This document shows, piece after piece, positions 14,794-64,000 of a stretch of 64,000 nt of DNA. The DNA is from an uncultured Acidimicrobiales bacterium (lineage in GTDB: Bacteria; Actinomycetota; Acidimicrobiia; Acidimicrobiales; VFJN01). Each line of letters opens with the position of its first letter. Position 1 is the stretch's first letter. Location of the stretch: assembly GCA_963842015.1 (NCBI GenBank), contig CAWJFG010000021.1, positions 253,284 to 317,283 of the forward strand. Reading direction: 5' to 3'. The translations under genes and the position numbers were made by a program. A model generated the notes under the pieces. That model saw only the letters and a program-made list of their open reading frames with translations. It ran no database searches and was not told the origin of the DNA.

Positions 14794-14802
14794 TCCGCTC
14801 GC

Positions 14803-38326: not shown

Positions 38327-41206
<2,880 letters not shown>

Positions 41207-41217
41207 TCCACCACAGA

Positions 41218-41708
41218 TCACGTCATCTCGCCGGGCAGCCTGCTGGCCTGCTCGATCCAGGAGGACGAGTCGGTCTTCGTCGATGTCGTCGGCCTCGTGG
41301 ATGTCGAAGTAGCGCACCTCGTCGTGCTTCGAGGCCTTGGGCGGGGCCGGGTCGAGTGATGTCCCTCGGAAGAACGTCAGCTGGACGTACTGGGTGTAGC
41401 AGCGAGAACGCGAGGAACCAGCCTTCTCCCTCGAAGCCGTAGAACGGTTGGTTCCACTTCACGGCCTTGTGCACGTGCGGGACCGTGCGAACGATGAGGT
41501 CGTCGAGACGCTGGCCGATGCCTCGTTTCCATCCGGGCATGGCGGCGATGTAGTCCTGAACGGGGCCGTCACCTTCCCCTTTGGGGATCTGCGGGTTGCC
41601 GCCCGACAACAGCCTGGGTCCCGAGCCGGACTTCGCAGGACGGGTCCGGGACCTCTTGTCGCTCGAGTTCGTGCGGTCGCTCATCGGCTCTCCATCGTCG
41701 GTCGGCAC
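41218..41708 (-). pseudogene. DUF1801 (YdhG-like) protein with two +1 frame breaks (about 41398-41410 and 41257-41266)
   Basis: Frame A reads ...VQDYIAAMPGWKRGIGQRLDDLIVRTVPHVHKAVKWNQPFYGFEGEGWFLAF. Frame B reads CYTQYVQLTFFRGTSLDPAPPKASKHDEVRYFDIHEADDIDEDRLV. Frame C reads WIEQASRLPGEMT followed by a stop. Confidence 0.7.
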
Positions 41709-41742
41709 CCCGCGGTGGGGTTGTGGGGCGAGGTTCTCGTCA

Positions 41743-42141
41743 TCACGGCAGGCTGAGCTGCCAGGTCACCCCATAGCGATCACCGACCCAGCCGAAACGG
41801 GTGCTGAACCCGTAGTTGTCGAGAGGCATGAACACCTGGCCGCCATCGCTGAGTCGATCGAAGAGTCGCTGAAGTTCGTCGTTGTCGTCGCAGTCGATCC
41901 AGAGTGACACTGCAGGGGTGAAGCCCCATTGGTGACGGACGGGGCTGTCGGAACAGCTGAAGTCGCTGCCGGCGAGACGGAACATCGCGACCTTGACGGT
42001 GCCCTCGGGTCCGCCGTCCCCCGGGCCGTAGTGGTCGATCTCGATGAGTTCGAAGTCGTCGAAGACGTCGCGGTAGAGATCGAGTGCTGCAGTGGCGGCG
42101 CCATCCTGGAACGTCAGGAAGGTTCGGAGACCCTGGGTCAT
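41743..42141 (-). CDS. VOC family protein (PhnB/3-demethylubiquinone methyltransferase-like fold)
   Basis: Intact 132-aa ORF: TFLTFQDGAATAALDLYRDVF...GFTPAVSLWIDCDD..ELQRLFDRLSDGGQVFMPLDNYGFSTRFGWVGDRYGVTWQL. Confidence 0.8.
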   Translation of the reverse strand: MTQGLRTFLTFQDGAATAALDLYRDVFDDFELIEIDHYGPGDGGPEGTVKVAMFRLAGSDFSCSDSPVRHQWGFTPAVSLWIDCDDNDELQRLFDRLSDGGQVFMPLDNYGFSTRFGWVGDRYGVTWQLSLP

Positions 42142-42218
42142 GGGATCGACCCTAACGACCGGCGTCCGGCCGATGCTCGGGTCGCCGAATGAGCTCCACC
42201 GAGGGCGAGCGGCGGGGA

Positions 42219-42572
42219 TCAGGGCTGCACGACGACCCAGCCGCGCCGCTGCAGCTCGGCGGCCAACAGCTCGGCCGGCATGTGGCGCAGTGCCTGCTCG
42301 GCGGCCGACTGCCGAGGGTTCGAGGGCGGAGGTGCGGCGGGCTCGCCCGACGCCTCGGCCTCCTCCAGCTGGGCGATGAACGCCGCTGCCTCGTCGCGGG
42401 TGAACTTGCCCGCCGCCTGACGCTGGGTGAACCCCATCGGCCCTCGGGCGTCGCGAAAGTCGGTGTGTCCGGCGTCCTGGAGCAACGTGAGCAACTTCTC
42501 CACCTCGCGCCGGACGCCGGCGGCCCTGCCTGCTGTCCGAATGCCATGCCCCCAGTGTCCCCGCCCGGCCAC
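42219..42572 (-). CDS. Hypothetical protein
   Basis: 117-aa ORF with coding-like composition (..LLTLLQDAGHTDFRDARGPMGFTQRQAAGKFTRDEAAAFIAQLEE..LAAELQRRGWVVV). I cannot name a family and the start is uncertain. Confidence 0.5.
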   Translation of the reverse strand: MAGRGHWGHGIRTAGRAAGVRREVEKLLTLLQDAGHTDFRDARGPMGFTQRQAAGKFTRDEAAAFIAQLEEAEASGEPAAPPPSNPRQSAAEQALRHMPAELLAAELQRRGWVVVQP

Positions 42573-42600
42573 GCAGTCCCGGGATGGGCCCGGCTCACCA

Positions 42601-43188
42601 TCAGGTCGCCTCGAGCGCAGCTCCAGCGCACCGACCGGTCAGATCCAGCAGCCGGTCCAGCGGGCTGGCCCCGACCCCGACACGTCCGCAGGGTTCGATG
42701 CCGAAGCCCATGCCGGGCGCCTCTCGTTCGATCACGTCGAGCACGTCGTCGACCAGGTCGTCGTCGAGGCCGGCGTCCCGACCGAGCGCTGCCGCGAGAT
42801 CCCACACGTGGACGGTGACGTCGAAGACGCGGATGCCGAGGAAGCGCACGCCGGGCATGTCGCCGAGGGGATGGCTGACGATCCCCCCGAGTGCGCCGTC
42901 TGCACGGAACCGAGTCCGCTGGGCCTCGGCGCTGTCGTCGTAGTCGCCGAGCGGGTCGGTTCCGAGCTGGGCCGAGCCCATCACGGACTCCATCGCCTCG
43001 GCGGCCGTGTCGCCACCCAGGATCATCGAGGCGAACCGGTTGCCACCCACGACGTGAGCCACGAGGTAGCGCACGTCCCACTCCGTGCAGGGCGTCGCCC
43101 GGGCCCAGTCCCCGGCGGAGACCGCGACGAGGTGTCCCCGGAACGTCGCCGCCGTTCGGTCGAGGGCACGGAGGAGCTGGTCGCTCAT
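42601..43188 (-). CDS. DinB-like / mycothiol maleylpyruvate isomerase N-terminal domain protein (TIGR03086-like)
   Basis: Intact 195 aa from ATG 43188: LDRTAATFRGHLVAVSAGDWARATPCTEWDVRYLVAHVVGGNRF...VFDVTVHVWDLAAALG. Confidence 0.75.
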   Translation of the reverse strand: MSDQLLRALDRTAATFRGHLVAVSAGDWARATPCTEWDVRYLVAHVVGGNRFASMILGGDTAAEAMESVMGSAQLGTDPLGDYDDSAEAQRTRFRADGALGGIVSHPLGDMPGVRFLGIRVFDVTVHVWDLAAALGRDAGLDDDLVDDVLDVIEREAPGMGFGIEPCGRVGVGASPLDRLLDLTGRCAGAALEAT

Positions 43189-43316
43189 CCGGCGAGTCTC
43201 GCAGTCCGGGCCGTCCAGTCCTGCGTGTCCGGCCGTGCCGCTTGGGCGCCGGGCACGGCCACGCCTCGAGCGTGTGGTGACCACGTGGCCGCGACCGGGT
43301 TCTCGACCGAGGCGGT

Positions 43317-43962
43317 TCAGGCGGCCGCACGGGTGAACGTCACGTGCGTGACTCCGCTGGGCGAGGACGTGGCCTCGATGTCGTAGTCCTTCTCGAGGCC
43401 CTCCAGCCCGTCCCAGAGGCGCACGCCTCGGCCGAGCAGGATCGGGACCACCGACGATGTGCATGTGGTCGACGAGCCCGGCCGCGAGGAAGTCGCGGAT
43501 CATGGTGGGACCCCCGCCGAGGCGTACGTCCTGGCCGCCGGCAGCCTCGCGGGCCGTCTCGAGCGCCTCGGCCGGCGAGGCGTCGATGAAGTGGAACGTC
43601 GTGCCGCCCTCCATCTCGATCGACGGGCGCGGGTGATGGGTGAGGACGAACGTCGGCGTGTGGAACGGCGGGTTGGGACCCCACCAGCCCTTCCACTCCG
43701 GGTCCTCGTGCCATCCGGGCGGGCCGAACTTCCCGGCGCCCATGATCTCGGCGCCGATCCCCGGAGCGAACTGCCGCAGGAAGGCGTCGTCGATGCCGCC
43801 GGTGCCGCCGGGCTCGCCGACCTCTCGTGCCACCACCGGGTGGCGAACATCCACTCGTGCAGCCGTCGCCGGCGTGACCGAACGGTGCGTCGCGGCTCAG
43901 GCCCTCGCCGGTGCCAAAGCCGTCGAGCGAGACGGAGAAGATTGGACGCGGGCGAGTGACAT
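43317..43962 (-). pseudogene. Dihydrofolate-reductase-family (RibD C-terminal-like) protein with at least 4 frame breaks
   Basis: Pieces lie in different frames. They are MSLARVQ, FSVSLDGFGTGEGLSRDAPFGHAGD, LHEWMFATRWWHE, then EVGEPGGTGGIDDAF...GPNPPFHTPTFVLTHHPRPSIEMEGGTTFHFI...LVDHMHIV, and finally VPILLGRGVRLWDGLEGLEKDYDIEATSSPSGVTHVTFTRAAA. Confidence 0.7.
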
Positions 43963-44059
43963 GGCTGTTGCTCCTTCGGTCGTCGGGTCATCGCTGACCC
44001 AGGTTCTTCACCCCTGAGTCGGAGCCGCCAGCGCGTATCCGACACGCCAACGCCTGGTG

Positions 44060-45023: not shown

Positions 45024-45132
45024 GTGCTGACACTACGGGCAGTCGCGGCCGGGTTCGTGGGCACTGCCGATGGTGTCACGTCCGACGGGGGAGCGGTGTC
45101 TTCATGGCGAAACACCGACGCAAGGAGGACAC

Positions 45133-45726: not shown

Positions 45727-45751
45727 GCGGCTGGACCAGCCGTCTGCCAGG

Positions 45752-46556: not shown

Positions 46557-46562
46557 CGCCGG

Positions 46563-47216: not shown

Positions 47217-47884
47217 GTGCCGTCTGCGCGTCGCAACGTCCCGAGTGAGCCCGTGCGAGGAGGCCACGTCGACCCCGGGTTCCCGGCCACGGCGTCGGAC
47301 CACCCGGCCACCTGGAAGTTCGACTTCCCGATCTACCACCCGCCGGACCTGGCGGCCTGGCGGGCGTGGCTGGCGCGAACCACGAGACCGCCCGCGGCGT
47401 GTGGGTCGCGTCGTGGAGGAAGGCCAGCGGGCGCGACCGGGTCCCCTACGAGCAGCTCGTCGAGGAGGCGATCTGCTTCGGCTGGATCGACTCGACGGTG
47501 AACACCCTCGACGACGAGCGCGGCCTGCAGCTCATGACGCCCCGCAAGCCCAAGAGCGGCTGGACCCGGCTCAACCGGCGGCGCTTCGCCGGCGCTGGAG
47601 GCGCAGGGGCGGATGACCGACGCCGGTCGCCGGGCCGTCGAGGTCGCCAAGGCCAACGGCTGGTGGACGATCTACGACGCGGTCGAGGACCTGATCGAGC
47701 CCGACGACCTGGCCGCGGCGCTCGACGCCTCCCCCGCGGCCCGTGCCGCGTGGGACGGCTTCCCGCCGTCGGCCCGCAAGCAGATGCTCTGGTGGATCGT
47801 CAGCGCCGGCAGGCCCGAGACCCGGGCCAGCCGCATCGCCAAGATCGTCACCGAGGCGAGCACGGCCGCCGCGCCGCCGGCTGA
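47217..47884 (+). pseudogene. YdeI/OmpD-associated (bacteriocin-protection-like) family protein with about 3 frame breaks
   Basis: The pieces are DLAAWRAWLA, then NHETARGVWVASWRKASGRDRVPYEQLVEEAICFGWIDSTVNTLDDERGLQLMTPRKPKSGWTRLNRRR, then MTDAGRRAVEVAKANGWWTIYD...FPPSARKQMLWWIVSAGRPETRASRIAKIV. The true start is uncertain. Confidence 0.6.
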
Positions 47885-47928
47885 CATCGTCGGGGCCGCC
47901 GGTCGACCCGAACCGTACGGTGGTCCGC

Positions 47929-48817
47929 ATGACCGGCGACCTGCGCGGCGCCATGACCTACCTGCAGGCCTCGATCGACGTCGGTGGACCGGAGCGGGAG
48001 GTGCGGCTGGCCGCGCCGCTGGACCGGGCTCCGAGCGGCTGGGGGGTCGTCGGCGTGCTGGGTCAGCCTCGACGACCCGTCCAGCCCTGGGGGAGCGCCC
48101 ATGGGTCGCCCGCCGGGTATCGAGAACGAACCTCGGCATGTGCCGGCTGTCTAAAAGGCGGCGTGGCGGCACACCGAAGCGTCGCACGAGGCGGAGGGGC
48201 AGCGCGGGTTACTGGGGGGCCAGGGCGCGGTCGAGGTGCACGCGGTCCAGCATCTCAAACGCCGACTCTAACACCACTGCGCTGCCGCTCCAGCGCTGCA
48301 CGTCGCCCACCCGAGCTGCGCGGCTCGCCCCGAGGCCGAGCAGACGTCGTCATCACCAACCGGCTCCGGTCCGTCTGGACCGTCGGCCTGCCGTGGCGCT
48401 ACCACCCGTTCCGTCCCCTTTCGGTGATGGCCGACGACTGGGTCGCGGGCGTGGTTAAGCGCGCACCTCGACGCGTACCCGGAGTCGATCCCGACGCCGG
48501 GGGCCGGCTCGCGAGGGAGTCTGCGCTGTTCCGCGAGCTGCCCGGAACTGGACCGACCGAGGTCCGGCCGTTCACCGACCTCCATGTGGTCTATGCGCTG
48601 TCCGGCCAGCGCTGCCCATGGCTGCTCATCGACCCCAAGCCGTACGTCGGCGATCCCCACTACGACGTCCTGCAGCACCTACTCAACTGCAACGGCTTGC
48701 CGCGGGCGCGGGCCGACCCGATCGGGCTGCTTGCCTCAGGTCGCCGATCTGGCCGGTCTGAACGCCTGACGGGTCCGGCAATGGCTCTTCGCGCGATCAG
48801 TCCAGGAAGAGCCTTGA
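47929..48817 (+). pseudogene. APH(6)/streptomycin-kinase-like phosphotransferase, heavily broken (many frame switches and two in-frame TAA)
   Basis: Recognisable pieces are PAV*KAAWRHTEASHEAEG..GGQGAVEVHAVQ, YHPFRPLSVMADDWVAG, PWLLIDPKPYVGDPHYDVLQHLLNC, VADLAGLNA and RVRQWLFARSVQEEP. The ends are approximate. Confidence 0.5.
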
Positions 48818-49124
48818 AGCCGACGTGACGTGGGGCCGGGGCTCGACGAAGTGCGCTGGCAGGGGCTGGGCGGCCCGTAGTCGACCACCTCGGCGGCCCG
48901 GCTGGCTCGGCACGGAGACCGTGCGACGTCAGACGCTCCACCACCAGCGGTTCCAGCGCCGCCTTGCCTCCCGCCACCCTCAACGTACGACGGGGCGGGG
49001 GGATTGCTGCAAGTCGGGTTTGCCGCTTCACTCGACGGGTCGTGCTCGTGATCGGTCGGAGAGCACGGGACACATCCACCGCGCGCCGAGCGGTCGCGCG
49101 TCCGAGAGTCCGGGGGAGAACGTC

Positions 49125-50713
49125 ATGGACCTCACCAGCGCCTCCGACGAGCTGGACGCCGACGTGATCATCGTGGGCGCCGGCCCGATCGGCCTGATGC
49201 TGGCCGGTGAGCTGGGCCTGGCCGGCGTGCGACCGCTGGTGCTCGAGCGGCGGCCGCAGCCCAGCGAGATCCCGAAGGCCGGCGGTCTCAGCGGGCAGAT
49301 CCTGGAGCTGTTGCGCTACCGAGGCGTGCTCGAGCGATTCGAAGCCGCCAGCACCGGCCCCCGGCCGGCTCCCCGATTCCCGTGGGGCGGCATGCACGTG
49401 GACTTCACCCAGCTGGCCGATCCCCCGATGGAGGCGATGCCGCTCCCACAACCGCTGCTCGAGCGCCTGCTCGCCGAGCTCGCCGGCGAGCTCGGTGCCG
49501 AGATCCGCCGCGGGCAGCGAGGTCATCGGGCTGAGCCAGGACGACGCCACGGTGACCGCGGACGTGCGCGGCCCGGACGGGCCGTATCGGGTGACCGCCC
49601 GCTACCTCGTCGGCTGCGACGGCGCGCAGCAGCCGGGTGCGCGACCTGGCCGGCATCCCGTTCCCCGGCATCACGTACCCGGAGGTCCAGCGGCTCGCCC
49701 AGGTCACCGTGCCCGACTCGGTGACCGTGCTCGACAACGGCGACATCGACGTCGCCGGCGTGGGCAGGATCACCTTCGGCTTCACACGGACCGAGCGCGG
49801 TGAGTTCGCCCTCGGGTCGACCGACCCCGCGCTCCTGGGGCTGTTCACCAGCGAGGACGAGTCCGCCGACTACGACGACGACGAGCCGATGACCGTGACC
49901 GAGCTCCGGGACAGCATCCGCCGCGTGCTCGGCGTGGATCTGCCCTTGGGAGAACCGACGCGGCTGACGCGCTTCACCTTTCACGCCCGACAGGTCGAGC
50001 GATACCGCGACGGGCGGATCCTGCTGGCCGGCGATGCCGCCCACCTGTTCCCCGCCCCCGGCGTGGCCCTCAACGCCGGCCTGCTCGACACCGTCAACCT
50101 CGGCTGGAAGCTGGCCGCCGCCATCCACGGCTGGGCGCCGGCCGGCCTGCTGGACACGTATCACGACGAACGCCACCTCGCCGGCGAACGCACCTTGCTC
50201 CACACCCGAGCCCAGGTGGCGCTGCGGCGCGGCCACGACCCGGCCGCCGACGCACTCCGGGAGCTCTTCCAGGAACTGCTCGTCGACGAGCAGCCGCTGC
50301 GCCGCATCGGCGCCCTCATGGCCGGCTCCGACGTCCGCTACCCGCCACCCGGCCACGACCACCACGCCTTGATCGGCACCTTCGCACCCGACCTCGCCCT
50401 GCGCACCGACCAGGGCGCAACGAGCGTCGCGGAGCTCATGCACACCGCACGGCCCATCTTCCTCGACCTCGCCGACCGCGCCGACCTCCGCGAGATCGCC
50501 CGAGACTGGCGGCATCGCATCGACATCCACACCGCCGAAACCGATCACCGACCAGCCGACGCCATCCTGATCCGCCCGGACGCCCACATCGCCTGGGCCG
50601 CGACCATCGACGAACCCACCGACACCGCCGCGCCCGCGCTGCGAGAGGCGCTCTCCGACTGGTTCGGCACACCCGCGAGAGCGACAATGCCCTTCCCCGA
50701 TCGGCCCTCCTGA
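49125..50713 (+). pseudogene. FAD-dependent aromatic-ring monooxygenase (rifampicin-monooxygenase/Rox-like) with two +1 frame breaks (about 49505-49515 and 49625-49640)
   Basis: DVIIVGAGPIGLMLAGELGLAGVRPLVLER dinucleotide fold, YLVGCDGAQ, RILLAGDAAHLFPAPGVALNAGLLDTVNLGWKLAA and LLDTYHDERH are present. The reading moves through frames 0, 1 and 2. Confidence 0.8.
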
Positions 50714-50741
50714 TCGGGACCGAACCCGCTGGAGGTGTCAG

Positions 50742-51232
50742 ATGGCCGTCTCGTACCAGTTGGTGATCGACTGCACGTCACCCGAACCGCTGGCGCTCTT
50801 ACGGGCCGAGGCGTTGCACTACGTCGTCGCACCTCCGCCGCCGGGCTTCGACTCGTGGGACGACTACTTCAGGTCACTCGGTGTGCCCGAGGACGAGCTC
50901 GGCCGCGGCATCGATCGGATCGAGGATCCCAAGGGTGAGGGTCCGAGCATCTGGTTCCAGATCGTCCCCGAGAAGAAGATCCGGATCAAGAACCGCATCC
51001 ACATCGACGTGCACGCGAGCGGTGATCGCAGCTTCGTGGCCGAGCTTCGGCGCGAGCGGGTCGAGGCCGAGGGGGCGCGTCTCGTGTCGCTGGGTGCCGA
51101 CGCGGCTGCACACGATCGTCGAGGAGGGTTTGGACCACGACCGCGGTGGCGCTGTCGGATCCCGAAGGCAACGAGTTCGACATCAACGAGGGGGGGCACG
51201 AGCTCTCGTCGCCGGCGAGATGGACGACCTGA
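50742..51232 (+). pseudogene. Glyoxalase-like (VOC) domain protein with two +1 frame breaks
   Basis: Three segments in different frames: MAVSYQLVIDCTSPEPLA...IWFQIVPEKKIRIKNRIHIDVHASGD...VEAEGARLVSLGA, TRLHTIVEEGLDH and VALSDPEGNEFDINE. Confidence 0.6.
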
Positions 51233-51433
51233 CACGCAGCCACCCGGCACCACCGCTCGATCGGCGAGACCGAATCGGCCGCCACCATCGAGCGGCAGGC
51301 CGAGCTCCTGCGCCAGATCCTGACAACTGCACCGTGAGCGCAGCCCTCCCACGAACCTCGGCGGACAGCAGCTCCAGCCACACGGCGGCGCTTCTCATTC
51401 GGGCCCCGTCTCGCGGGCCTTATCGTTCACGGC

Positions 51434-52268
51434 GTGGTGCGACTCGGCTCGGGAGAGCGGGCGAGGCTCCCGGATCGTGCCTTCGCGCACGTCGACGGCC
51501 ATGGCCGGCGGCTGCTGCCGATCCATGACGCCAGCCACGTCCGCAATGCCCTCGCTCGGTTCAACCAGGTCAGGTTCGAGAACGACGCCGCCCGGGATCG
51601 TGCCCGCAAGCGGCTCCTCAACGCGGCCAAGAGGTTCAGGATCGTGCCGGTCGGGTTCATCTCCAACGAGCTTCGCTCCGAGCGCGAGCTCGGGCGCCGG
51701 GACCACGAGCCGAGGCGGTTGCCCTCGGGGTTCGTGACCATGCTCCTCACCGACATCGAGGGATCGACTGCGCTGGTCCGTCGCCTCGGCGACAGCTATG
51801 GCGACCTGCTCGAGCGCGTCAGGGCCCTACTCGGGACTCGGCGGCTCGGGACCGGTGGCCAGGTGGTCGAGACCCACGCCGACGAGTTCTTCGCCGTGTT
51901 CGAACGACCCGCGGTCGGCCTCGCCACGGCGTTGGCCGTGCCGCGGGAGCTGCGGGCGAGGACGCTCGCCGGCGACGAGGACGTCCGCGTCCGGGTCGGG
52001 ATCCACAGCGGCTACCCGACGCTGGCCAAGGCGAACTACCTCGGCCTCGCCGTCCACGTGGCAGCGCGGAACTGCGACGCGTCGCACGGTGGGCAGATCG
52101 TCGTGTCCGGCGACTCGGCACCACGATCCGAGGCCACCTGCCGGACGGCGTGCGCTGCAGAAGCTCGGGACGTACACGCTCCGGGGCCTGCCCGAGGACG
52201 TCGAGCTCTCCCAGGTCGCGGCCCCGGGACTCGTGCGCCGCTTCCCCCCGTTGAGGGCCTCCCGGTAG
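51434..52268 (+). pseudogene. Class III adenylate/guanylate cyclase with an unusual N-terminal module; two -1 frame breaks near 52105-52150
   Basis: The cyclase core is VTMLLTDIEGSTALVRRLGDSYGDLLE...ETHADEFFAVF...VRVGIHSGYP...GLAVHVAARNCDASHGGQIVVSGD. It continues as TTIRGHLPDGVR, then LQKLGTYTLRGLPEDVELSQVAAPGLVRRFPPLR in other frames. Confidence 0.7.
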
Positions 52269-52289
52269 CGCCGGTGCGCGGGGCGGACA

Positions 52290-53196
52290 TCACGGTTGGA
52301 GGACATACCTTCCGCGCACGCCGCCGTTCGGCGACCACGCGGTGGGTGGCGGCGACCTGGTCGAGCGGTACGACGGCGTGCACCCGGGCCGGCAGGCGGC
52401 CGCTCGCGGTGACATCAAGGAGCGGGGCGAGCCGGGCACCGTCGGGCGCGGTGACCACCACCCGGACCGTGACGCCGCGTTCCCTGCGGGGGCCGCACCG
52501 GGCTGTATGCCGACGAAGAGGCCGCCGTCGCGGACCAGCGCGAAGCCGCGCTCCTGGAGCACAGCGCCGTCGCCGACCACGTCCCAGCCGGACGCGGCCT
52601 GTGCGGTGAAGTCGGCGCCGAGGCTGCGGACGAACGTCTCGTCGTCGGCCCGGGCCAGTCCGGTGACCCGCCAGCCACGGTCCTGGGCGAGCGGGATCAC
52701 GTAGCCGCCGACCGCACCGGCGGCCCCGGTGACCAGCAGGCGCCGGCCTTCGCCGTCGCCGAGCAGGTCGACCATCTGGGCGGCGGCCAGGCCGTTGAGG
52801 GGGACCGTCGCGGCCGTGGTCAGGTCGAGACCGTCGGGCACGAGGGCCACGTCGCTCGCCGGGAGGACGAGCTGCTCGGCGTAGGTGCCGAAGTCGCGGT
52901 CAAACCCGTCGATCAGCCCCGCGACCCGGCTGCCGAGCGGGAGGTCGACGCGAGACCGAAGGCGGTGACGGTGCCGGCGAAGTCCCAGCCCAGGCCGGTG
53001 TGATCGGGCTGGTGGCTCACCCGCGCCGGTGGAACAGACCGGCGGCGACGGCCACGTCGACGGGGTTGACCGCGGCAACGGCGATCTCGACCCGAACCTG
53101 GCCCGCCCGGGTTCGACGACGGGGACGTCGATGATCTCGATGGAGTCGGGGCCGTCCGGGGGTGCGGACGAGGGCGGCGCGGAAGGTGCTTCCCAT
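52290..53196 (-). pseudogene. Zinc-independent MDR-family NADPH:quinone oxidoreductase with at least 5 frame breaks
   Basis: ATG 53196 has an AGGAGA RBS. The pieces are IEIIDVPVVEPG, HQPDHTGLGWDFAGTVTAFG, then SRVAGLIDGFDRDFGTYAEQLVLPASDVALVPDGLDLTTAATVPLNGLAAAQMV..RLLVTGAAGAVGGYVIPLAQDRGWRVTG, then LPARVHAVVPLDQVAATHRVV, ending in GGVRGRYVLQP. Confidence 0.7.
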
Positions 53197-53265
53197 GTTC
53201 GTCTCCTGTGGAAGGGTCGGTGTTGGTCCCCCACGATGGACCTGTTACTCTCCTTTGGGAAGTAG

Positions 53266-53288
53266 GCACCTCGAGGTGCGTTTCGCAC
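53266..53288. promoter_or_regulatory. Overlapping palindromes in the qor/hxlR divergent region (candidate HxlR operator)
   Basis: GCACCTCGAGGTGC is a perfect 14-bp palindrome (53266-53279). It overlaps GTGCGTTTCGCAC (53276-53288). Confidence 0.4.
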
Positions 53289-53312
53289 CGAGCGGTGCGG
53301 GAGGAGCGGTCG

Positions 53313-53765
53313 ATGGCGTCGATGACGGCAGCCCAGAAGCGGGCGCAGGCGAAGGCGGACTACGACGCGTTCCTGGCCGGCTGCCCCAGCCGGCAGCTGC
53401 TCGACCGGATCTCCGACAAGTGGGTGGCGCTGGTCCTCGCCACGCTGGGCGGCGACGGGCCGCACCCCGGGGGAGACTGCGCGGGCGAGCCGCGGTCGAT
53501 GCGCTATTCCGAGCTGGCCCGCCGGCTGGCCGGGGTAAGCCAGAAGATGCTGACCCAGACGCTGCGCTCGCTGGAACGCGACGGCCTGGTCGGCCGCACG
53601 GTGACGCCGACCGTGCCCGTCACGGTCACCTACGAGCTGACCGACCTCGGGTCCTCGCTCCACGACGTGATGCGCGACCTCAAGCTGTGGGCGGAGGCGC
53701 ACATGGACGAGGTGCTCGCCAGCCGCGGAAGATACGACGTGGCTAGCCTTCGATCGGAGGGATGA
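53313..53765 (+). CDS. HxlR family winged-helix transcriptional regulator
   Basis: Intact ORF: CPSRQLLDRISDKWVALVLATL...MRYSELARRLAGVSQKMLTQTLRSLERDGLVGRTVTPTVPVTVTYELTDLG. A GGGAGGAG RBS is present. Confidence 0.85.
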   Translation: MASMTAAQKRAQAKADYDAFLAGCPSRQLLDRISDKWVALVLATLGGDGPHPGGDCAGEPRSMRYSELARRLAGVSQKMLTQTLRSLERDGLVGRTVTPTVPVTVTYELTDLGSSLHDVMRDLKLWAEAHMDEVLASRGRYDVASLRSEG

Positions 53766-53818
53766 TGAGGCGAAACGTGCCACGGACAACGGCTGCATCG
53801 AAGATCTCGGCGAACGGC

Positions 53819-54195
53819 TCAGCCGTCCAGGGCTTTGAGCATGCGCTTCGCACAACCCAGGCGGTACGACGCATCCGCGAGCTCCGCGCGCACCTCGTCC
53901 CAGTCGACGGGAGCGGCCTGGAATCGAGAGCAAGCCAGCCGCTCGGACCGAAGTACGGCGGCGAGTAGAAGCGCTCGTCCTCGAGCAGGGGCGCCCGCTC
54001 GTCGCTGTCCGGCTTGAAGATCCGGCCCCAGGGGCGTTCTTCCGTTCCGGAGAACACGCCGAAGATCTTCTTGCCGGCACGGAAGGTGGGCCGGCCCCGC
54101 GCCTCGACCTCGACCGACTCGGGGAAGGCCAGGAGCACCTCGCGGAGTCCCGCCAGATACGGGTCGTCGTCCTGGTACATCCGGGGATGAGCCAT
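53819..54195 (-). pseudogene. MmcQ/YjbR family protein with one -1 frame break at about 53925-53935
   Basis: MAHPRMYQDDDPYLAGLREVLLAFPESVEVEARGRPTFRAGKKIFGVF...YFGPSGWLALD, then FQAAPVDWDEVRAELADASYRLGCAKRMLKALDG in another frame. Confidence 0.65.
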
Positions 54196-54331
54196 GCCCG
54201 GGGAGCGGTCTTGGACGAAACGAACAGGTGGGGTGCCACGCCCGGCGCCGCCGTCGTGGGGATTTCTCCCGTGGCCTGTCGATCTCGGCGGGCCTCGTTG
54301 GTCGTCACCACAGGAACGAAGGGAGACCACC

Positions 54332-54873
54332 ATGCGCACGGTCGTGCTGTACCAACTGCTCTCGCTCGACGGAGTGGCCGAAGAGCCCGGGGGACTGGTT
54401 CGCCGACGACGGCCCCGAGATGTTCGACAACCTGCGTGCCGTGATCGAGCCGCAGGAGACCGTGCTGCTCGGCCGCGGGACCTACGACTACTGGGTGGAC
54501 TTGTGGCCAACGTCGGGATCTCGAGCCGTTCGCCAGCTTCGTCAACGGAACCGACAAGCACGTGTTCACCTCGCACCCACCGTCCGATGCGTGGCCGAAC
54601 ACGACCTTCGTCACGACCTCGGCGGTCGATCACGTCGCCGAGATCAAGCAGGGAGACGGCGGGGACATCGGCATCCACGGGAGCATCTCGGTCGCCCGCT
54701 CGCTGCTGAGGGCGGGCCTCGTCGACGAGCTGCGGCTCGTCGTGGCCCCGACGGTCGCCGGCCGCGGTCGGCGCCTGTTCGACGACGACGCGCCGATGCA
54801 GCGGCTCGACCTGGACGAGGTCGAACGCACGCCTGCGGGGTCGCTGTTCCTCACGTACCGCCGCCGCGGATGA
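54332..54873 (+). pseudogene. Dihydrofolate-reductase-family (RibD C-terminal-like) protein with two +1 frame breaks
   Basis: Three segments in different frames: MRTVVLYQLLSLDGVAEEPG, DWFADDGPEMFDNLRAVIEPQETVLLGRGTYDYWVDLWPTSG, and FVNGTDKHVFTS...GDIGIHGSISVARSLLRAGLVDELRLVVAPTVAGRGRRLF...GSLFLTYRRRG. Confidence 0.7.
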
Positions 54874-56165
54874 GCGCGGCAGCGGGCGACGTCTGGTCGG
54901 TCCTCCCGACTCGGGCGGGCGTGGATCGCGTCGAGCCGGGCTCGCAGATGCGTCCGTTCGACGTCGTTGGAGCACAGGCCGATCGCCTCGCGGTAGGAGG
55001 CCCGGGCGAGCTCGATGTCGCCGGCGCGTCGAGCGAGTTCGGCGCGCACGGCGGGGACACGGTGGTTGTCGCGCAAGACATCGTCGAGTCCCGCGATCAG
55101 GGCGAGGCCGGCCCGGGGACCCTGGGCCTCGGCGACCGCGACCGCGCGGTTGAGCCGAACGATCGCGGAGCCGGTTCGTGCTTCGAGGTCTGCGTAGTGC
55201 CCGGCGATCGCGTTCCAGTCCGTCGCCGCGGCGGTGGGTGCCCGCGCGTGCTCGGCCGCGATGAGGGCCTGGAGTCGGAGCTCCTCGGCGAAACCCTCAT
55301 CTGGCGGGAGCCCGGCGGCGAGCCCGAGCCCGGCCCGGATCTCGTCGTGGTTCCAGATCGAGCGGTCCTGGTCGGCGAGGGTCACCAGCCGGCCGTCTCG
55401 TAGGCGGGCGTCGCGACGCGAGTGTTGGAGCAGCAAGAGTGCGAACGTCGCTCGGACCTGGGTGGCGTGGGGGACGAGGTCGTGCAGGATGGCGGCGAGC
55501 CGCACGGCATCACCCGCCAGGTCAGCACGCAACAGGTTAGGCCCGGCGCCGGGGGTGTACCCGGCGGTGAAGGCGAGATAGATCGTGCGGCACACCTCGT
55601 CGAGACGTGAACGGAGCTCGTCCTCGAGCGGGGCGCCGAGCGGGATGCCGGCGAGCACGATCTTCTTCTTCGCTCGGGTCAGGCGCGCCGCCATCGTCGA
55701 TGGCGACACGAGGAACAGGCGGGCGATCTGCTCGGTCGGTGTCCCGATGACGAGGCGGAGCGCCAGCGCTGACCGTGATTCGCGCGGGAGTGCCGGGTGA
55801 CAGCACGACAAGATGAGCTGCAGACGATCGTCGGCCAACTCCTCCAGTGGATCGCCGGTTGGCACCCATCCGGGTCGGACGGCGAGGAGCGGCGCCTTGC
55901 GCCCCGCGACGGCCTCGGTCCGGAGCCGCCCGACGACGTGCCGGTAGGCGGTGGCGTACAGCCAACCGGCGGGATTGGCCGGCACTCCTTCGTCCCTCCA
56001 GCGGTCCGATGCCCGGGCGAAGGCCTCACCCAAGGCGTCTTCGGCCAGATCGAGACGACGGGTCCGCGATACGAGCAGCGACAACAGGCGGCCCCACTCG
56101 GCCCGAAAGATCTGCTCGATGACTCGATCAGGACACGTCGAGGACCGGTCGGATGTCGATGTCAT
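54630..56165 (-). CDS. ECF-type RNA polymerase sigma factor with a long C-terminal extension domain (the type usually paired with YciI-like proteins); 3' end uncertain
   Basis: About 414 family-like codons read in one frame. They run from MTSTSDRSSTCPDRVIEQIFRAEWGRLLSLLVSRTRRLDLAEDALGEAF...NPAGWLYATAYRH...PTEQIARLFLVSPSTMAARLTRAKKKI... to ...ERTHLRARLDAI. No stop follows, and the ORF continues about 97 more codons antisense into the neighbouring gene. Confidence 0.75.
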   Translation of the reverse strand: MTSTSDRSSTCPDRVIEQIFRAEWGRLLSLLVSRTRRLDLAEDALGEAFARASDRWRDEGVPANPAGWLYATAYRHVVGRLRTEAVAGRKAPLLAVRPGWVPTGDPLEELADDRLQLILSCCHPALPRESRSALALRLVIGTPTEQIARLFLVSPSTMAARLTRAKKKIVLAGIPLGAPLEDELRSRLDEVCRTIYLAFTAGYTPGAGPNLLRADLAGDAVRLAAILHDLVPHATQVRATFALLLLQHSRRDARLRDGRLVTLADQDRSIWNHDEIRAGLGLAAGLPPDEGFAEELRLQALIAAEHARAPTAAATDWNAIAGHYADLEARTGSAIVRLNRAVAVAEAQGPRAGLALIAGLDDVLRDNHRVPAVRAELARRAGDIELARASYREAIGLCSNDVERTHLRARLDAIHARPSREDRPDVARCRAHPRRRYVRNSDPAGVRSTSSRSSRCIGASSSNRRRPRPATVGATTSRSSSTRPALSSERATEMLPWMPMSPPSPCLISAT

Positions 56166-56481
56166 AGGCGGGCAGGATCCTGCACAACTCGATGACGGTG
56201 TCGAGGCCGGGCGCATCGAGAAGGTAGTAGCCACCGATCTGCTCCGCGGCCTCGGCGAACGGCCCGTCGGTGATGGTCATCTCACCGCTGCGAGTGCGCA
56301 ACGTCGTGGCCATCGAGCCGTCCCCCAACGACTCTTCACTCAGGATCTCCACTCCCGGCTCGGCCGCGCACGCCTCGTCGAAGGCGACGTGCTTGGCCAT
56401 CAGTGCCTCCTGCTCGTCGGCCGTCAGCGCATCCCATGACGGCAGCTCACCGAAGCCCGCGAGCAGAACGAAATACTTCAT
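56128..56481 (-). CDS. YciI family protein
   Basis: Intact ORF: MKYFVLLAGFGELPSWDALTADEQEALMAKHVAFDEA...MTITDGPFAEAAEQIGGYYLLDAPGLDTVIELCRILP. Confidence 0.85.
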   Translation of the reverse strand: MKYFVLLAGFGELPSWDALTADEQEALMAKHVAFDEACAAEPGVEILSEESLGDGSMATTLRTRSGEMTITDGPFAEAAEQIGGYYLLDAPGLDTVIELCRILPAYDIDIRPVLDVS

Positions 56482-57445
56482 CGCAACTCCTCTCCCTCAG
56501 CGCCGGCGACCACCGCCGGCACCACCATGACGCGCCGGACCACCCCGAATCGACAACTCCGACGAGAAAACCGGCCGGGTGAACGGCGAGCGGGTCGACC
56601 GGCGTGGTGAACGGGTCGGTCAACCGGCGCCACCTGCGCGCGGGGATGGCTGTCCAGCAACCGCTCGTAGTGCCGGGGCGGGGCCACGGCGGACGGGTCG
56701 TAGTCGGGCTGGTACACCCACTCGCGCGCCTCGGCGGAGAGCGCCGCCACCGCGGCGGCCGCCTCCAGCGCACGCTGGTCGGACGCCTCCCGTTCTTCGT
56801 CGGCCATCCCCGCCTGGTCGATCCCGGTGATGTGGACGGCGGCGGCCAGGACGTGCTCGGCGTTGTGTCGACGGTTGAAGGTGGCCCCCTCGGTCCGGAG
56901 CCGGAACGCCTCCTCGGGGCCGAAGAGCCGGTGCAGCACGTCGTGCACGACGCTGCGGTGCTCGAACTCCTCGGCCAGGTGCCACATCCACAGCCGCATG
57001 GGCTCGGAGCCGTGGTCGCCGCACATGCTGCGATGTGGCCGTCGAGCAAGGCCTCGGCCAGCGCGCGGCCGGAGGACTCGAAGCCCTCGCCGTAGCCAGG
57101 TTCCAGGCCAGCGAGCGGTGGCCAGGAACTCGTCGAGGTCGGCCTCGAACGCGGCCTCGAAGTCGCGGATGCGCGGGTAGCCGGTGCGTCAGCATCTCCA
57201 GTCAGGCCGTTGTGGAGCTTGTAGTGCTGGCCCTCCTGCTTGTTGAAGAGGCGATGTCCTCCAACAGGTCGGCGTCGGCGACCGGGTCGAGCTCCTGCTT
57301 GGCCAGGCGCATCACCTTGATCAGGTAGCGCTCGATGGGCGGCGGGATGATCGCCCCGGCGTTGATGACGTGCACGGCCTCGACGTTGTCGCCCCAGTGC
57401 GGGACGCTGCGGAGAAGTCGAAGTCGGGGCGGCGGACGGTAGCAT
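56478..57445 (-). pseudogene. Predicted metal-dependent hydrolase family protein, very heavily frame-broken (about 8-10 switches)
   Basis: The pieces lie in alternating frames. They are DFDFSA, then [52 protein letters not shown], then [57 protein letters not shown], and finally GSEPMRLWMWHLAEEFEHRSVVHDVLHRLFGPEEAFRLRTEGATFNRRHNAEHV... The ends are approximate. Confidence 0.55.
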
Positions 57446-57460
57446 CGGTGCCTCCTCGGC

Positions 57461-59193
<1,733 letters not shown>

Positions 59194-59209
<16 letters not shown>

Positions 59210-60679
59210 GGCGCACCTCCGAAGGTGAAGTCGTCGCGGTCGATCGCGCTCGGTCGCCTCCCGGTACCAGCCCGACGGTGTGCGGGAGCTGGGTGACGAT
59301 GTCGCCGGCGGCGTTGTGGAAGTAGCTGCGTGCAGCCGGCGTCGGCCCAGATCGTGCCGGCCAGGTCGCGCTCGGAGCTCGCCGGCGTAGCGGGCCATCG
59401 CCTCGGCCGTCACCTCGACCGACCGGCGCCCGCCTCGCCGCATGGCGGCGAGGGCGCTGGCCACGAACTGCGCCTGGGCCTCCAGGATGAGCAGGATCGA
59501 GTTGCCGCCCTGGTTGGTGTTGGGCCCGTAGAGCATGAAGAGGTTCGGGAAGCCGGGGACGGCGATGCCGTGGTAGGCGCGGGGCACGCCCGCCCACGCT
59601 CGTGGATGGACGTGCCGCCCCGGCCGACCACGTCGATGCCGCACAGGTAGTCGCTGGCGCGGAAGCCGGTGCACAGGACGATGGTGTCGGCCGGGCGCTC
59701 GACGCCGTCGACCGTGCGGATGCCCGTCGGCGTGATCGCGCTCGATGGCGTCGGTGACGAGCTCGACGTCGTCGCGCTGGACCGCCGGGAGGTAGTCGCT
59801 GGAGATCAGCGGTGCGCTTGCAGCCGAACGGCTGGTCGGGGGTCAGCCGCGCCCGCAGCTCGGGGTCGGGGACCTTGTGCTCGAGGTAGCCCGCGGGCGA
59901 CGTCGGCGATGGCGTCGCATCGACGGGTCGCCGGCGACGAACGCGGTGGTGCCGCTCGAACAGGTCGTGGAGCTCCTGGCGGTGCCGGGCGGCGTCGTCG
60001 GGGTGCGTCGGCGAACTGGCGCTGCTGCTCGTCGGTGTAGGGCGGGTCCTTGCGCGGCAGGATCCACGGGGCGCTGCGCTGGTAGACGTCGACGTGGGCG
60101 GCGCGCTCGGCGATCGCCGGCACGATCTGGATGGCGCTGGCGCCGGTGCCGACGACCGCGACCCGCCGGCCGGTGAGGTCGTGGTCGTGGTCCCAGCGGG
60201 CCGAGTGGAACATCGTCCCCTCGAAGTCGTCGAGGCCCGGGATCGCCGGGATCGACGGGGTGTGGAACATGCCGATGGCCGAGACGACGACCCGGGCCTC
60301 GTGCACGCTCGCCGCGCTGGTCGCGCAGGTGCCAGCGCCCGTCCGTCGTCCGACCAGGTGGCGGCCACGACCTCGGTGCCGGTCCGCACCTTGCGGCGGA
60401 CGTCGAAGCGGTCGTAGCAGTCCTCGACGTAGCGCGAGGATCTCGGGCTGGGCGGCGTAGGCCCGCGACCAGCTGGGGTTGGGGGCGAACGAGAGGCTGT
60501 AGAGGTGCGACGGCACGTCGCACGCCGCGCCCGGGTAGGTGTTGGCCCGCCACGTGCCGCCCACGCCGTCGCCCCGCTCGAGGATGACGACGTCGTCGAT
60601 GCCGTCCTGGGCGAGGCGGTGGGCGACGGCCAGGCCGCCGAACCCGGCGCCGAGGACGGCGACCTCGACCGCGCGTCAC
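59194..60679 (-). pseudogene. Flavin-containing / Baeyer-Villiger-type monooxygenase, about 10 frame breaks
   Basis: The pieces are VAVLGAGFGGLAVAHRLAQDGIDDVVILERGDGVGGTWRANTYPGAACDVPSHLYSLSFAPNPSWSRAYAAQPEIL, YVEDCYDRFDVRRKVRTGTEV, then ARVVVSAIGMFHTPSIPAIPGLDDFEGTMFHSARWDHDHDLTGRRVAVVGTGASAIQIVP, and [26 protein letters not shown]. The ends are approximate. Confidence 0.7.
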
Positions 60680-61112: not shown

Positions 61113-61166
61113 TGAATCGGAGTTTAGACTCTGAGTACAAGGTCTCGCCACCGAGGAGGTCGCCGC

Positions 61167-61746
61167 GTGCGACCGATGCCCGCCGGCATGCGCGAGAAGG
61201 TGCTGGCCGCGGCCGAGCTGATCGCCGACCACGGCCTCGACGCCACGAAGATGGAGGACATCGCCGCCGCCACCGGCGTGCCGAAGGCGACGCTCTACTA
61301 CTACTTCGACGGCAAGGAGGACATCCTCGCCTTCCTGTTCAACGAGATCCTCGACGAGGTCGCGCGGGCCGTCGACGCCGCCCTCCGGACCGACGGCACC
61401 GCGGCCGATCGGCTGCGTGTCGCGATCGTCGCCCACCTCCGGATCTTCGAGGCCTTTCCCGCCGCCAGCCGGGCGCTCCAGTTCGACCTCGGCCGAGCGG
61501 CGCGGATCCCCCACATCGACGAGCGGATCGAGGCCGCCTACCGCAGGCCCATCCGCCGAGCTGCTCGACGACGGCGCCGCCGACGGCAGCCTCCGCGCCG
61601 TCGAGCACCCCCGGCTCGTCGCCGTCGCCATCCTCGGCGCCGTGACGACGGTGGGCATCAACGCCCTCACGCTCGGGCCGCGCCGCTCGGTCGACGAGGT
61701 CGCCGACGAGGTCGTCGGCTTCGTCCTCGGCGGGGTGTCGTCGTGA
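61167..61746 (+). pseudogene. TetR family regulator with one +1 frame break at about 61545-61560
   Basis: MREKVLAAAELIADHGLDATKMEDIAAATGVPKATLYYYFDGKEDIL HTH reads in frame 0. The C-terminus AELLDDGAADGSLRAVEHPRLVAVAILGAVTTVGINAL... reads in frame 1. Confidence 0.75.
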
Positions 61747-62468
61747 CCGCGCGTCGTCGTCGGTGGCGGGTCGGGCATCGGCGCAGCCGTCGTCGCCGCG
61801 CAGCTGGCGCGGGGCCTCGAGGTCGTCGTGTGGGACCTCGGCGACGGCGCCGACGTCGCGCTGCGACATCACCACGCCGGAGCAGGTCGACGCGGCGGCG
61901 GCCGCCACGCTCGAGCGCTTCGGGTGCCCCGACGTCGTGACCGTCACCGCCGGGATCGGGCACGGCGGGATGCTGCTCGACGCGCCCGCCGACGACTGGG
62001 ACCACGTCGTGGGCACCAACGCCAAGGGCGCGTGGCTGGCGATGCGGGCGCTCGCTCGGCCGATGCTCGAGCAGGGCGGCGGGTCGATCGTGGTGACGAG
62101 CAGCGTCAGCGCCCTGCCTGGCCGACCGGTCGATGGGGCTCTACTGCGCCTCGAAGGCGGCGCTGGACATGGTCGTCAAGGTCGCAGCCCTCGAGTGGGC
62201 GCCGACGGTGCGGGTCAACGCGGTCGCCCCCGGGGTCACCGACACCCCGATGCTCGGACCGGCGCCCCGCGACCGGGGCTGGCTCCGCGGCGTCGCCGAC
62301 CGCACCGCCCTCGGCCGGCTCGGGACGCCCGACGACATCGCCGAGGCCATCCTCGCGGTCCACGACATGCGGTGGACGACCGGGCAGATCGTCGTGTGCG
62401 ACGGCGGTCTCTCCCGCCGCAGCCCGATCGACCCGGCCGGGGGTCCTCGACGGGACCAGATCGACTGA
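61743..62468 (+). pseudogene. Short-chain dehydrogenase/reductase (SDR) with three consecutive +1 frame breaks
   Basis: GTGA overlap with the TetR stop. The segments are VVGGGSGIGAAV, CDITTPEQVDAAAAATLERFGCPDVVTVTAGIG...IVVTSSVSAL and MGLYCASKAALDMVVKVAALEWAPTVRVNAVAPGVTDTPML...GQIVVCDGG. Together they carry the TGxxxGxG, YxxxK and PG motifs. Confidence 0.75.
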
Positions 62469-62501
62469 CGCGCCGGCCCCCCGCTTCGCGGCACGGGACG
62501 G

Positions 62502-63344
62502 TCAGGCGGAACCGTCGGTCCATTCGCTGGTGAGCTCGGGCCAGCGCCGGCGAGTGGCGCCATCGGCGGGGAAGAAGGATTCGACCCGGAGCTCCTGAGC
62601 CGTGACGTCGATGGGCGTGCCGATCGTCGATATCACCGAGAAGAAGGCCAGCTCGACATCGCCGATGGCGAAGCGCAGATCGACCACCGGCCCATCCGAG
62701 GTCGACGGGTCGGGCGTGGCGAGCAGCTCCGCGACATCGGACCGCTCGCGCAGGGTGGCGACGAGCTCGGCGGTGTGCGGGTCGAGCACACCGCTGATCG
62801 CCTCCCGCCGCGCCCGCTCGAGGAGCGCCGGCGCCACCGCGGCCCAGTTGCGAACGCTGTCACGGACGGGGCCCGGCTCGATGATCAGCCGCAGGACGTT
62901 GGCGTCGGTCGGCACGGGTTCCGGTGCGAAGAGACGGCCGAAGAGGCGTGCGGCGCCGTCGTTGGCCCGCTGGAGGTTCCACGCGCGGTCCATCACCACC
63001 GCGGGGAAGGGCTCGTGGCCGGCGAGCAGGCTCGTGAGCGCCTCGTCGACCCGGGCCATCAGCGGACTGGTCAGTGGTTCGAGCGAGTAGAGAGGCGCGA
63101 AGCCGGCTGCGAGGAGCAGGTCGTTGCGCTCCCGCAGCGGCACGTCCAGCGCCCGAGCGAGGCGGACCACCATCTGCCGGCTCGGCTGGGCCCGACCCGT
63201 CTCCAGGAAGCTGACGTAGCGCGGCGTGGTGTCGGCGTCACCGGCCAGGTCGAGCTGGCTCTTGGCCCGCACGGAACGCCAATGGCGCAGAAGATCACCG
63301 AGCCCGCCGCGAGCGGCGGCAGCGGAGGACGACGGCATCGGCAC
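62502..63344 (-). CDS. MmyB-like (XRE-HTH plus MmyB C-terminal domain) transcriptional regulator
   Basis: Intact 280-aa ORF: LGDLLRHWRSVRAKSQLDLAGDADTTPRYVSFLETGRAQPSRQMVVRLARALDVPLRERNDLLLAAGFAP...PFPAVVMDRAWNLQRANDGAARLF. Confidence 0.85.
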   Translation of the reverse strand: MPMPSSSAAAARGGLGDLLRHWRSVRAKSQLDLAGDADTTPRYVSFLETGRAQPSRQMVVRLARALDVPLRERNDLLLAAGFAPLYSLEPLTSPLMARVDEALTSLLAGHEPFPAVVMDRAWNLQRANDGAARLFGRLFAPEPVPTDANVLRLIIEPGPVRDSVRNWAAVAPALLERARREAISGVLDPHTAELVATLRERSDVAELLATPDPSTSDGPVVDLRFAIGDVELAFFSVISTIGTPIDVTAQELRVESFFPADGATRRRWPELTSEWTDGSA

Positions 63345-63472
63345 CGAACGCTACGGCGGCGATCGGGGCGTGTCCCTTCCCAGCCGGGGAATCGCCGGGA
63401 CACCGTGGCGGGGAGAGGCTGCCACCAGCCGGCACGTGCCGGGACGTCCGACCACATCGAGGACACGACCAC

Positions 63473-64000
63473 ATGCAGCTGACCATCCAGACCCTCGACA
63501 GCGCACCCGCCGACTCCCGCCCGATCATGCAGTCCATCGCCGCGGATCTCGGGTTGGTGCCGAACCTCGCCGCCACCGCGGCGACCTCACCTGCCCTCCT
63601 GGCCGGATTCGACGGGCTCCGACGGGCGGTGGGCTCCACGAAGCTCGACCCCGTGCTCCGCGAGGTGGCCGGCCTGGCGGTCGGGGTCGCCGTCGACAAC
63701 CGCTACGGCGTGGCGTTCCACTCGACGATGCTCGCCGGCCTCGGCCTCGACGACGGCGACATCGATGCCATGCGCGAGGACGCGCCCCATCGGGCGAGGG
63801 CGCAGCCGCCACGCACCAGCTCGCCCGCGAGGTCACGCTCGGACGAGGCACGGTCTCCGACGCCACCGTCACGCGGGCGACCGCGGCCGGCCTCGACACC
63901 GAAGCCATCCTCGAGATCGTCCTCGAGGCCTCGTTCGCCGGTCTCGTCGGCACGATCGACAACCTCGCCGACCACGTCGACCTCGACGAATTCCTCGCCC
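63473..64000 (+). pseudogene. Carboxymuconolactone decarboxylase/AhpD-like protein, partial at the window end, one -1 frame break at about 63770-63785
   Basis: The ATG at 63473 opens MQLTIQTLDSAPADSRPIMQSIAADLGLVPNLAATAATSPALLAGFDGLRRAVGSTKLDPVLREVAGLAVGVAVDNRYGVAFHSTMLAGLGLDDGDIDAMRE. It continues as RAPSGEGAAATHQLAREVTLGRGTVSDATVTRATAAGLDTEAILEIVLEASFAGLVGTIDNLADHV in another frame. It is absent from the ORF track because there is no stop in the window. Confidence 0.7.

Follow-up and report, generated by a model that had tools for sequence, protein, structure and literature searches.

Frame breaks crowding the strain-variable DNA downstream of nrdJ in an uncultured Acidimicrobiales contig are very probably single-base consensus errors

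Pseudogene-rich decaying regions are known, for example from reductive evolution in Mycobacterium leprae and from recent host-restricted pathogens. A region with the same outward appearance is present in a stretch of 64,000 nucleotides from an uncultured Acidimicrobiales bacterium (GenBank assembly GCA_963842015.1, contig CAWJFG010000021.1, positions 253,284 to 317,283), hereafter called the window. Consecutive disrupted genes here adjoin an intact core block that ends with nrdJ, the gene for a B12-dependent ribonucleotide reductase. The window differs from decaying regions in that nonsense codons, large deletions, insertion sequence elements, excess substitutions and relaxation of dN/dS (the ratio of nonsynonymous to synonymous change) are all missing from it, in its bias towards insertions, and in that its lesions are not inherited by close relatives. 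We conclude with high confidence that the frame breaks are single-base consensus errors in a poorly supported, strain-variable stretch and thus an artefact of assembly; the genes of 41-64 kb are probably intact in the organism.

The window also resembles the consensus indels described for Nanopore assemblies (PMC9262707, PMC12313526): single-base indels truncate open reading frames (ORFs), are private to one assembly and leave codon conservation intact in the sequence flanking the breaks, and sister contigs of the project behave in the same way, with breaks even in core genes. The published signature is centred on homopolymers, whereas the indels of the window lie mostly outside runs and are dominated by insertions; in addition, where a single contig passes a strain-variable junction, their density shifts about 30-fold. 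Flexible genomic islands provide a parallel for the setting of the noisy block, not for its frame breaks, since four relatives have four sets or orders of detoxification-type genes immediately beyond the stop codon of nrdJ. At the island boundary, neither an integrase nor a tRNA or repeat was seen.

Relatives' contigs and proteins are referred to by analysis labels (L- and P-numbers). A scan of a genome collection with the sigma factor of the window as a query returned 60 loci, mostly from uncultured Acidimicrobiia and other Actinomycetota metagenome-assembled genomes (MAGs), many of them belonging to the "MFD" series. The top matches were L045, a named MFD MAG sequenced by Nanopore (91% amino acid identity), and L001 (88%). 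The NrdJ protein of the window is 97% identical to P0001/P0002, its relatives on L061 and L062, two ENA contigs named in the style of Flye, and several ENA and JGI contigs encode an NrdJ of 93-97% identity. Short-read reference contigs were L067, L145 and L146, all from JGI. The MFD long-read catalogue was built from Nanopore reads only, using Flye (--meta --nano-hq) and one round of Medaka, and its authors describe Nanopore-associated errors in low-coverage MAGs (PMC12313526). Earlier work of the same group (Sereika et al. 2022) showed that Nanopore bins below 40x need polishing and that indels fragment gene calls (PMC9262707). Six of ten clean ORFs of the window have exact translations in the public protein collection, all on a single contig of 573,181 nt, whose large size and "NCBI, ENA" source label recur in the sister records. 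The window comes from an Acidimicrobiales MAG and not from a Streptomyces-like actinomycete isolate. It is most likely part of a long-read contig made, like its nearest relatives, by Nanopore-only Flye assembly and a single Medaka round; its sequencing platform is what we infer from them.

Frame-break density was estimated by three independent counts, for which the window was divided into block 1 (1-41.2 kb, through the nrdJ stop codon) and block 2 (41.2-64 kb). In the first, a codon-usage model trained on long clean ORFs was used for 7-state Viterbi segmentation of the whole window. Block 1 gave long coding segments with solid same-strand frame switches at just 6724/5, 12343/4, 17098/9 and 20619/20, and block 2 gave 36 frame switches and segments of 50-400 nt. 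This model misses closely spaced pairs of switches and undercounts in 42-48 kb. Translations stitched across the Viterbi junctions were family-typical proteins, each matching its Pfam family in one stretch spanning the junctions: FAD_binding_3 at positions 1-345 of 349 (followed by full Rng_hyd_C), Metal_hydrol at 16-244 of 247 and DUF1801 at 5-77 of 85. The second count relied on pairwise alignment of the window to the nearest sister contig, L062. Seven single-nucleotide gaps were found in the 10.6 kb of 30.6-41.2 kb (0.7 per kb), 35 in 4.66 kb of 42.2-46.9 kb (7.4 per kb), and the density reached 13.9 per kb at 47.1-48.0 kb.

The third count employed a purpose-written frameshift-aware protein-to-DNA aligner with continuous ORFs of relatives, including those of L067, L145 and L146, as references. 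It placed four breaks (12360, 17101, 18527 and 20632) in 24.9 kb of block-1 coding DNA between 11.7 and 41.2 kb, affecting 3 of 23 genes, and 82 breaks in 16.6 kb of block 2 between 42.2 and 64 kb, affecting 19 of 22 genes. These figures correspond to 0.16 and 4.95 breaks per kb, a difference of about 30-fold (binomial p=6e-28). About 15 more breaks are present in block-2 genes without a close reference, which brings the total to roughly 90-100. An earlier reading of the window, made from the sequence only, had noted by eye an abrupt jump in frame breaks after nrdJ, with several dozen of them beyond 41.2 kb, and had named similar indel density in 1-41 kb as the result that would remove the boundary; all three counts bear out the jump, and on recounting the boundary holds. 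From its list for block 1, the breaks at 12.36, 17.10, 18.53 and 20.63 kb were recovered to the base against the short-read contig L145, and the one at 6.73 kb was found by the codon model alone; a possible break at 29.85 kb was not supported by frameshift-aware alignment.

By maximum likelihood the change point falls within 42.5-43.45 kb; the earliest break downstream of nrdJ lies at approximately 41.4 kb. A single change point at 57 kb, given by the Viterbi counts, was dropped because of the undercount in 42-48 kb; the protein-guided catalogue puts it at 41.2-43.5 kb. Breaks are spread unevenly over block 2 (chi-square p=0.004). Their density is highest at 56.6-60.7 kb (9-10 per kb), followed by 43.3-47.2 and 52.3-53.3 kb (6-8 per kb), is near zero at 49.64-50.71, 54.9-56.5 and 62.5-63.4 kb, and drops toward the end of the window. 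Plain tblastn was unfit to place frameshifts: at 72% G+C (the window ranges over 69-76%) wrong frames seldom contain stops, and one gapped high-scoring pair crossed all breaks. Stop-to-stop ORF references were over-extended for HxlR, YciI and the N-termini of BVMO and SDR, and those results were discarded; "hyp278" of L062, probably an antisense gene call, was left out of the counts. A metagenome scan with the amidohydrolase returned relatives of just 64-71% identity, too distant for polarisation at the DNA level, which served to supply intact protein references. Contigs L063 and L064, representing the YciI cluster, share the YciI-sigma pair alone and were unused as a third sequence.

Comparison of the locus in sister genomes, which had been proposed as a check, showed that the breaks are private to the window. 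The corresponding ORFs are uninterrupted at the window's breaks in L062, L061, L045, L067, L145 and L146. Among these, the short-read references cover SRPBCC and YjbR (L146) and the BVMO/amidohydrolase/hydrolase operon, TetR and SDR (L067), and the SRPBCC breaks were reproduced with L146. There is no break common to the window and its 95%-identical sister. Three-way polarisation of the window, L045 and L061 over 5.2 kb of block 2 assigned 15 indels of a length other than a multiple of three to the window, 3 to L045 and 3 to L061; three-way alignments over 10.6 kb of block 1 gave four such window-specific indels, all intergenic. The relatives have breaks of their own. L045 carries about 13 in its BVMO and amidohydrolase genes at positions differing from those of the window, and its sigma gene, the counterpart of which in the window is clean, has two breaks that compensate each other; L062 is garbled over 2.9 kb directly after nrdJ (12839-15835) and has breaks also in core genes. 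Since L045 and L062 carry their own, different breaks, the phenomenon is generic to this family of assemblies. That the hot patch of L045 falls in the same BVMO and amidohydrolase genes was given no weight as evidence of an intrinsic cause, the chance of such overlap being estimated at about 1 in 3 (a 3.3-kb against a 4.1-kb patch within approximately 21 kb).

The lesions are almost exclusively single-nucleotide changes. In the alignment with L045, 107 of 119 gaps are 1 nt long and about 10% are longer; against L062 at 42.2-46.9 kb the figure is 35 of 38 gap runs. Seventy-six window-specific 1-nt indels could be polarised, each a single-nucleotide gap at the site of a break that protein-guided alignment had placed in the window, and these comprise 52 insertions and 24 deletions (about 2:1). 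The sequence-only reading had located the lesions in short mononucleotide runs, and this was not the case: 77% of insertions and 67% of deletions have no identical neighbouring base, against 49% and 57% for chance placement, so that fewer lie in runs than expected. Its explanation by consensus error is thus supported in substance and not in its homopolymer form, as most indels are single-base insertions outside runs. With 4-10 events per kb, many insertions and no homopolymer preference, the spectrum resembles noise close to read level and not systematic homopolymer error or the residual error of a well-covered, polished consensus. In block 1, all four breaks tested against the short-read L145 are isolated 1-nt insertions in the window, two of them outside any run (A at 18531, T at 20631).

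At the boundary, the window can be aligned to L061 and L062 as far as 41207/41209, and comparison of NrdJ with that of L061 gave no frameshifts and no stops. The window, L061, L062 and L146 diverge in sequence about 50 nt or less from the stop codon of nrdJ, and the genes that follow, drawn from Glyoxalase_6, SRPBCC, DUF1801, YjbR, RibD_C, CMD, APH and a two-component system, form four different sets or orders in these four relatives. The junction at 41207-42213 cannot be aligned to L062, which has there 2.9 kb of different sequence, and colinearity with L062 returns at 42.2 kb. What follows nrdJ is an island of variable gene content, made up of small genes of the detoxification or stress type, including an F420H2-dependent quinone reductase; it occupies 41207-54900 of the window, 12881-22880 of L061, 12886-21784 of L062 and 9873-19872 of L146. 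Rfam and tRNA scans gave no match at the boundary or elsewhere in the window. The boundary would be the point where a metagenome assembly graph branches from a shared, well-covered edge to strain-specific edges with less read support. The sharpness of the boundary had been thought to favour decay of the island; because it marks the loss of colinearity among four related genomes, where graph branching is expected, it does not favour decay and would be expected under an artefact.

On this basis we propose that up to the nrdJ stop codon the contig would run through a core segment that is colinear among related strains and has good consensus, and that from approximately 41.2 kb it would enter the variable island with much weaker read support, due to low depth, a minor strain path or both. 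Weak support would leave roughly read-level indel noise, about 4-10 per kb. The frame breaks would then come from a weakly supported consensus that keeps such noise, with the genes probably intact.

Several observations weigh against consensus error, and some of them are what genuine pseudogenisation would lead one to expect, that is, decay of the island after nrdJ by fixed frameshifts while sigma, MmyB and HxlR stay under selection. Most indels are found away from homopolymers, and insertions predominate, unlike the classic signature of polished Nanopore data, although indels of this type are also seen in L045, the Nanopore sister. The distribution of errors is over-dispersed, the sigma gene having none where a uniform rate predicts 5.9 and MmyB none where it predicts 4.1, and selection on regulators predicts the same. 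Substitutions on the window branch fall on third codon positions in 52% of cases in block 2, compared with 60-63% in L045 and L061; frame mis-assignment near breaks, some substitution error or slightly relaxed selection could account for the shift. Finally, the APH(6)-like gene (47929-49113) has about 10 breaks and one possible in-frame stop, with no coding signal at 48061-49113; its reference, APH_6_hur of L061, is only 63% identical, and this stretch, the only candidate of its kind in the block, could be a genuine pseudogene. Decay would also suit a boundary lying at the end of a conserved synteny block. The substitution record speaks otherwise. The sequence-only reading had called for frameshift-aware alignment with a count of indels, substitutions and nonsense codons, and the outcome was that indels alone are raised. 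Mismatch to L062 amounts to 4.71% ahead of the boundary and 4.68% beyond it, and dN/dS between the window and L045 is alike in broken genes (0.21-0.43) and their intact neighbours (0.18-0.35). The aligned codons of the 22 block-2 genes with a reference are free of nonsense codons, whereas about 380 neutral substitutions (assuming four per indel for approximately 95 indels), each with a probability of 0.023 of creating a stop here, would be expected to yield about 9. Genes of 1.5 kb with 14-17 breaks still align full-length at 64-82% amino acid identity to distant orthologues. Bacterial pseudogenes reportedly show a deletional bias with a broad size spectrum (Mira, Ochman and Moran 2001; Kuo and Ochman 2009), whereas some 90% of the events here are of 1 nt and insertions prevail. 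As to the long ORFs that survive, the intact state of sigma, MmyB-like, HxlR and YciI had been correctly noted and their escape is statistically real, but functional selection does not explain it, the clean patches being spatial: that at 49.64-50.71 kb is two-thirds of a monooxygenase gene already broken upstream, the regulator TetR is broken and the enzymes MDMPI and PhnB-like are not. Escape from lesions is therefore a matter of location and not of gene function. Genuine decay of an accessory island is thus unsupported, because neutral substitutions did not accumulate with the approximately 95 indels; a sister MAG from another sample, moreover, breaks the same genes at different places, and we regard decay as very unlikely.

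A rather different origin of spurious indels, not involving low depth, would be mixed haplotypes: reads of co-occurring strains or species pile up and the polisher emits indels where they disagree. Many close relatives co-occur in the project, as the contigs with NrdJ at 93-97% identity show, gene content varies among strains here, and the densest stretch, from BVMO to SDR, is less synonymously diverged from L045 (pS of 0.07-0.13 against about 0.2 in the flanks), which would favour cross-mapping. Yet window-specific indels are not enriched near positions at which the sisters differ, with 0.25-0.43 mismatches within +/-3 nt of the indels and 0.28-0.49 in the background, and the mismatch rate of block 2 is not raised; we hold this origin to be unlikely while granting it some weight. 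Real indels, mainly single-base insertions, from a localised, very recent mutational process, such as error-prone repair or replication acting over about 20 kb of accessory DNA in one Acidimicrobiales population, would require that process to be too young for substitutions or nonsense codons to build up, and we consider it very unlikely. Biological recoding, in which programmed ribosomal frameshifting or transcriptional slippage reads through the breaks, would agree with the family-typical proteins obtained from stitched frames, an agreement with nothing specific to it; against it are some 90 sites in heterogeneous contexts that share no motif and lie mostly outside runs, the absence of the shift sites from orthologues at 90-95% nucleotide identity, and shifts in either direction (+1 and -1), as many as 10 in a kb. 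Recoding is accorded next to no probability. Consensus error in a weakly supported, strain-variable stretch remains the reading that we adopt for what follows.

Table 1. Features of the window with the frame breaks found in them; coordinates are those of the window
Feature	Coordinates	Strand	Observations
Background breaks of block 1	6724..20632		6724/5 (sigma), 12360 (DUF3048), 17101 and 18527 (Liv permease-ATPase fusion), 20632 (MiaB)
nrdJ (B12-dependent ribonucleotide reductase, 959 aa)	38327..41206	+	intact; last gene of the clean colinear block
Junction, colinearity ends	41207..42213		DUF1801 with one break at ~41398; intact PhnB-like VOC gene at 41743-42141
Small accessory genes, colinear with L062	42222..47174		frameshift-aware alignment to L062, L061 and L146 proteins, 83-97% identity, 0 stops; breaks: hyp127 1, MDMPI_N 0, RibD_C 4, F420H2_quin_red 4, SRPBCC 2, CMD 3, APH 5, cupin 5
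YdeI/OmdA-like gene and APH(6)-like gene	47260..49113	+	Pfam OmdA; at least 2-3 breaks in YdeI/OmdA-like; worst-resolved stretch
FAD_binding_3 / Rng_hyd_C aromatic-ring monooxygenase	49114..50710	+	breaks at ~49504 and 49636, then 1.07 kb clean
Glyoxalase_6 to RibD_C	50714..54864		breaks: Glyoxalase_6 3, guanylate/adenylate cyclase 2, zinc-ADH 7, HxlR 0, YjbR/MmcQ 1, RibD_C 2
ECF-type sigma with DUF6596, and YciI	54916..56481	-	0 breaks, 1.6-kb clean patch; Pfam Sigma70_r4_2, DUF6596
Operon of BVMO, Amidohydro_3/D-aminoacylase-like and Metal_hydrol	56643..60670	-	breaks: BVMO ~14, amidohydrolase ~17, Metal_hydrol 7; Pfam; densest stretch, 9-10/kb
TetR to CMD	61167..64000		breaks: TetR 1, SDR 2-3, MmyB-like regulator 0, CMD 1

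The features are collected in Table 1. Viterbi switches in the YdeI/OmdA-like region are at 47349, 47593 and 47899. The sigma factor has full-length matches in the 60 loci of the scan, and the exact YciI protein is present in a public collection. The order YciI-then-sigma (DUF6596) recurs in 60 genome loci, mostly of Acidimicrobiia MAGs and also in bins labelled Myxococcota, Rhodothermales and Thermomicrobiales. The operon at 56643..60670 was compared with intact proteins of L067, which showed no stops in it, and it is unbroken in L065, L066, L067, L071 and L073. It forms part of a divergent cluster (56643-62465 of the window, 4234-10050 of L067) that is colinear and intact in five JGI contigs at 56-76% amino acid identity; SDR and TetR share a strand, opposite to BVMO, Amidohydro_3 (about 575 aa) and Metal_hydrol (PF10118). 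The cluster appears to be a conserved catabolic module. Genes with low pS relative to L045 are BVMO, SDR, TetR and the amidohydrolase, the values for the flanking sigma, YciI, MmyB, cyclase and HxlR being approximately 0.19-0.21; this halving of pS at 59.2-62.5 kb suggests a recent exchange of the module between lineages.

In block 1, the coding region at 14914-18629 (plus strand) specifies a fusion of 1246 aa that combines a branched-chain-type ABC permease (BPD_transp_2) with two ABC_tran ATPase domains. As L145, a short-read contig, encodes it in one uninterrupted ORF, the Liv fusion is real, and only its two frame breaks in the window are artefactual. Immediately upstream of nrdJ, 645 nt without coding signal (37695-38339) align with L061 and L062, have no Rfam match even at E<=1 and contain three window-specific 1-nt indels. 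Truncated genes were also seen elsewhere: in L062 (1-2100) an aminotransferase is 161 aa long instead of about 365, and a beta-lactamase of 205 aa in L063 corresponds to 149+264 aa in L064. Local error patches seem to be common in Flye-named ENA contigs of the same project.

Overall, the data indicate that consensus quality of a long-read MAG can shift about 30-fold inside one contig as it crosses into strain-variable DNA. Local error patches of this kind hit accessory genes preferentially and are masked by quality scores computed for the whole MAG. The alignment of broken genes to relatives in a frameshift-aware manner, combined with the indel spectrum and dN/dS, can tell artefact from decay without access to the reads. 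Taken at face value, 41-64 kb would lead to wrong claims of gene content, pseudogene numbers and metabolism: about 19 of the 22 testable genes would be called broken while their orthologues are intact, and the falsely broken genes would include the conserved operon for BVMO, amidohydrolase and metal hydrolase.

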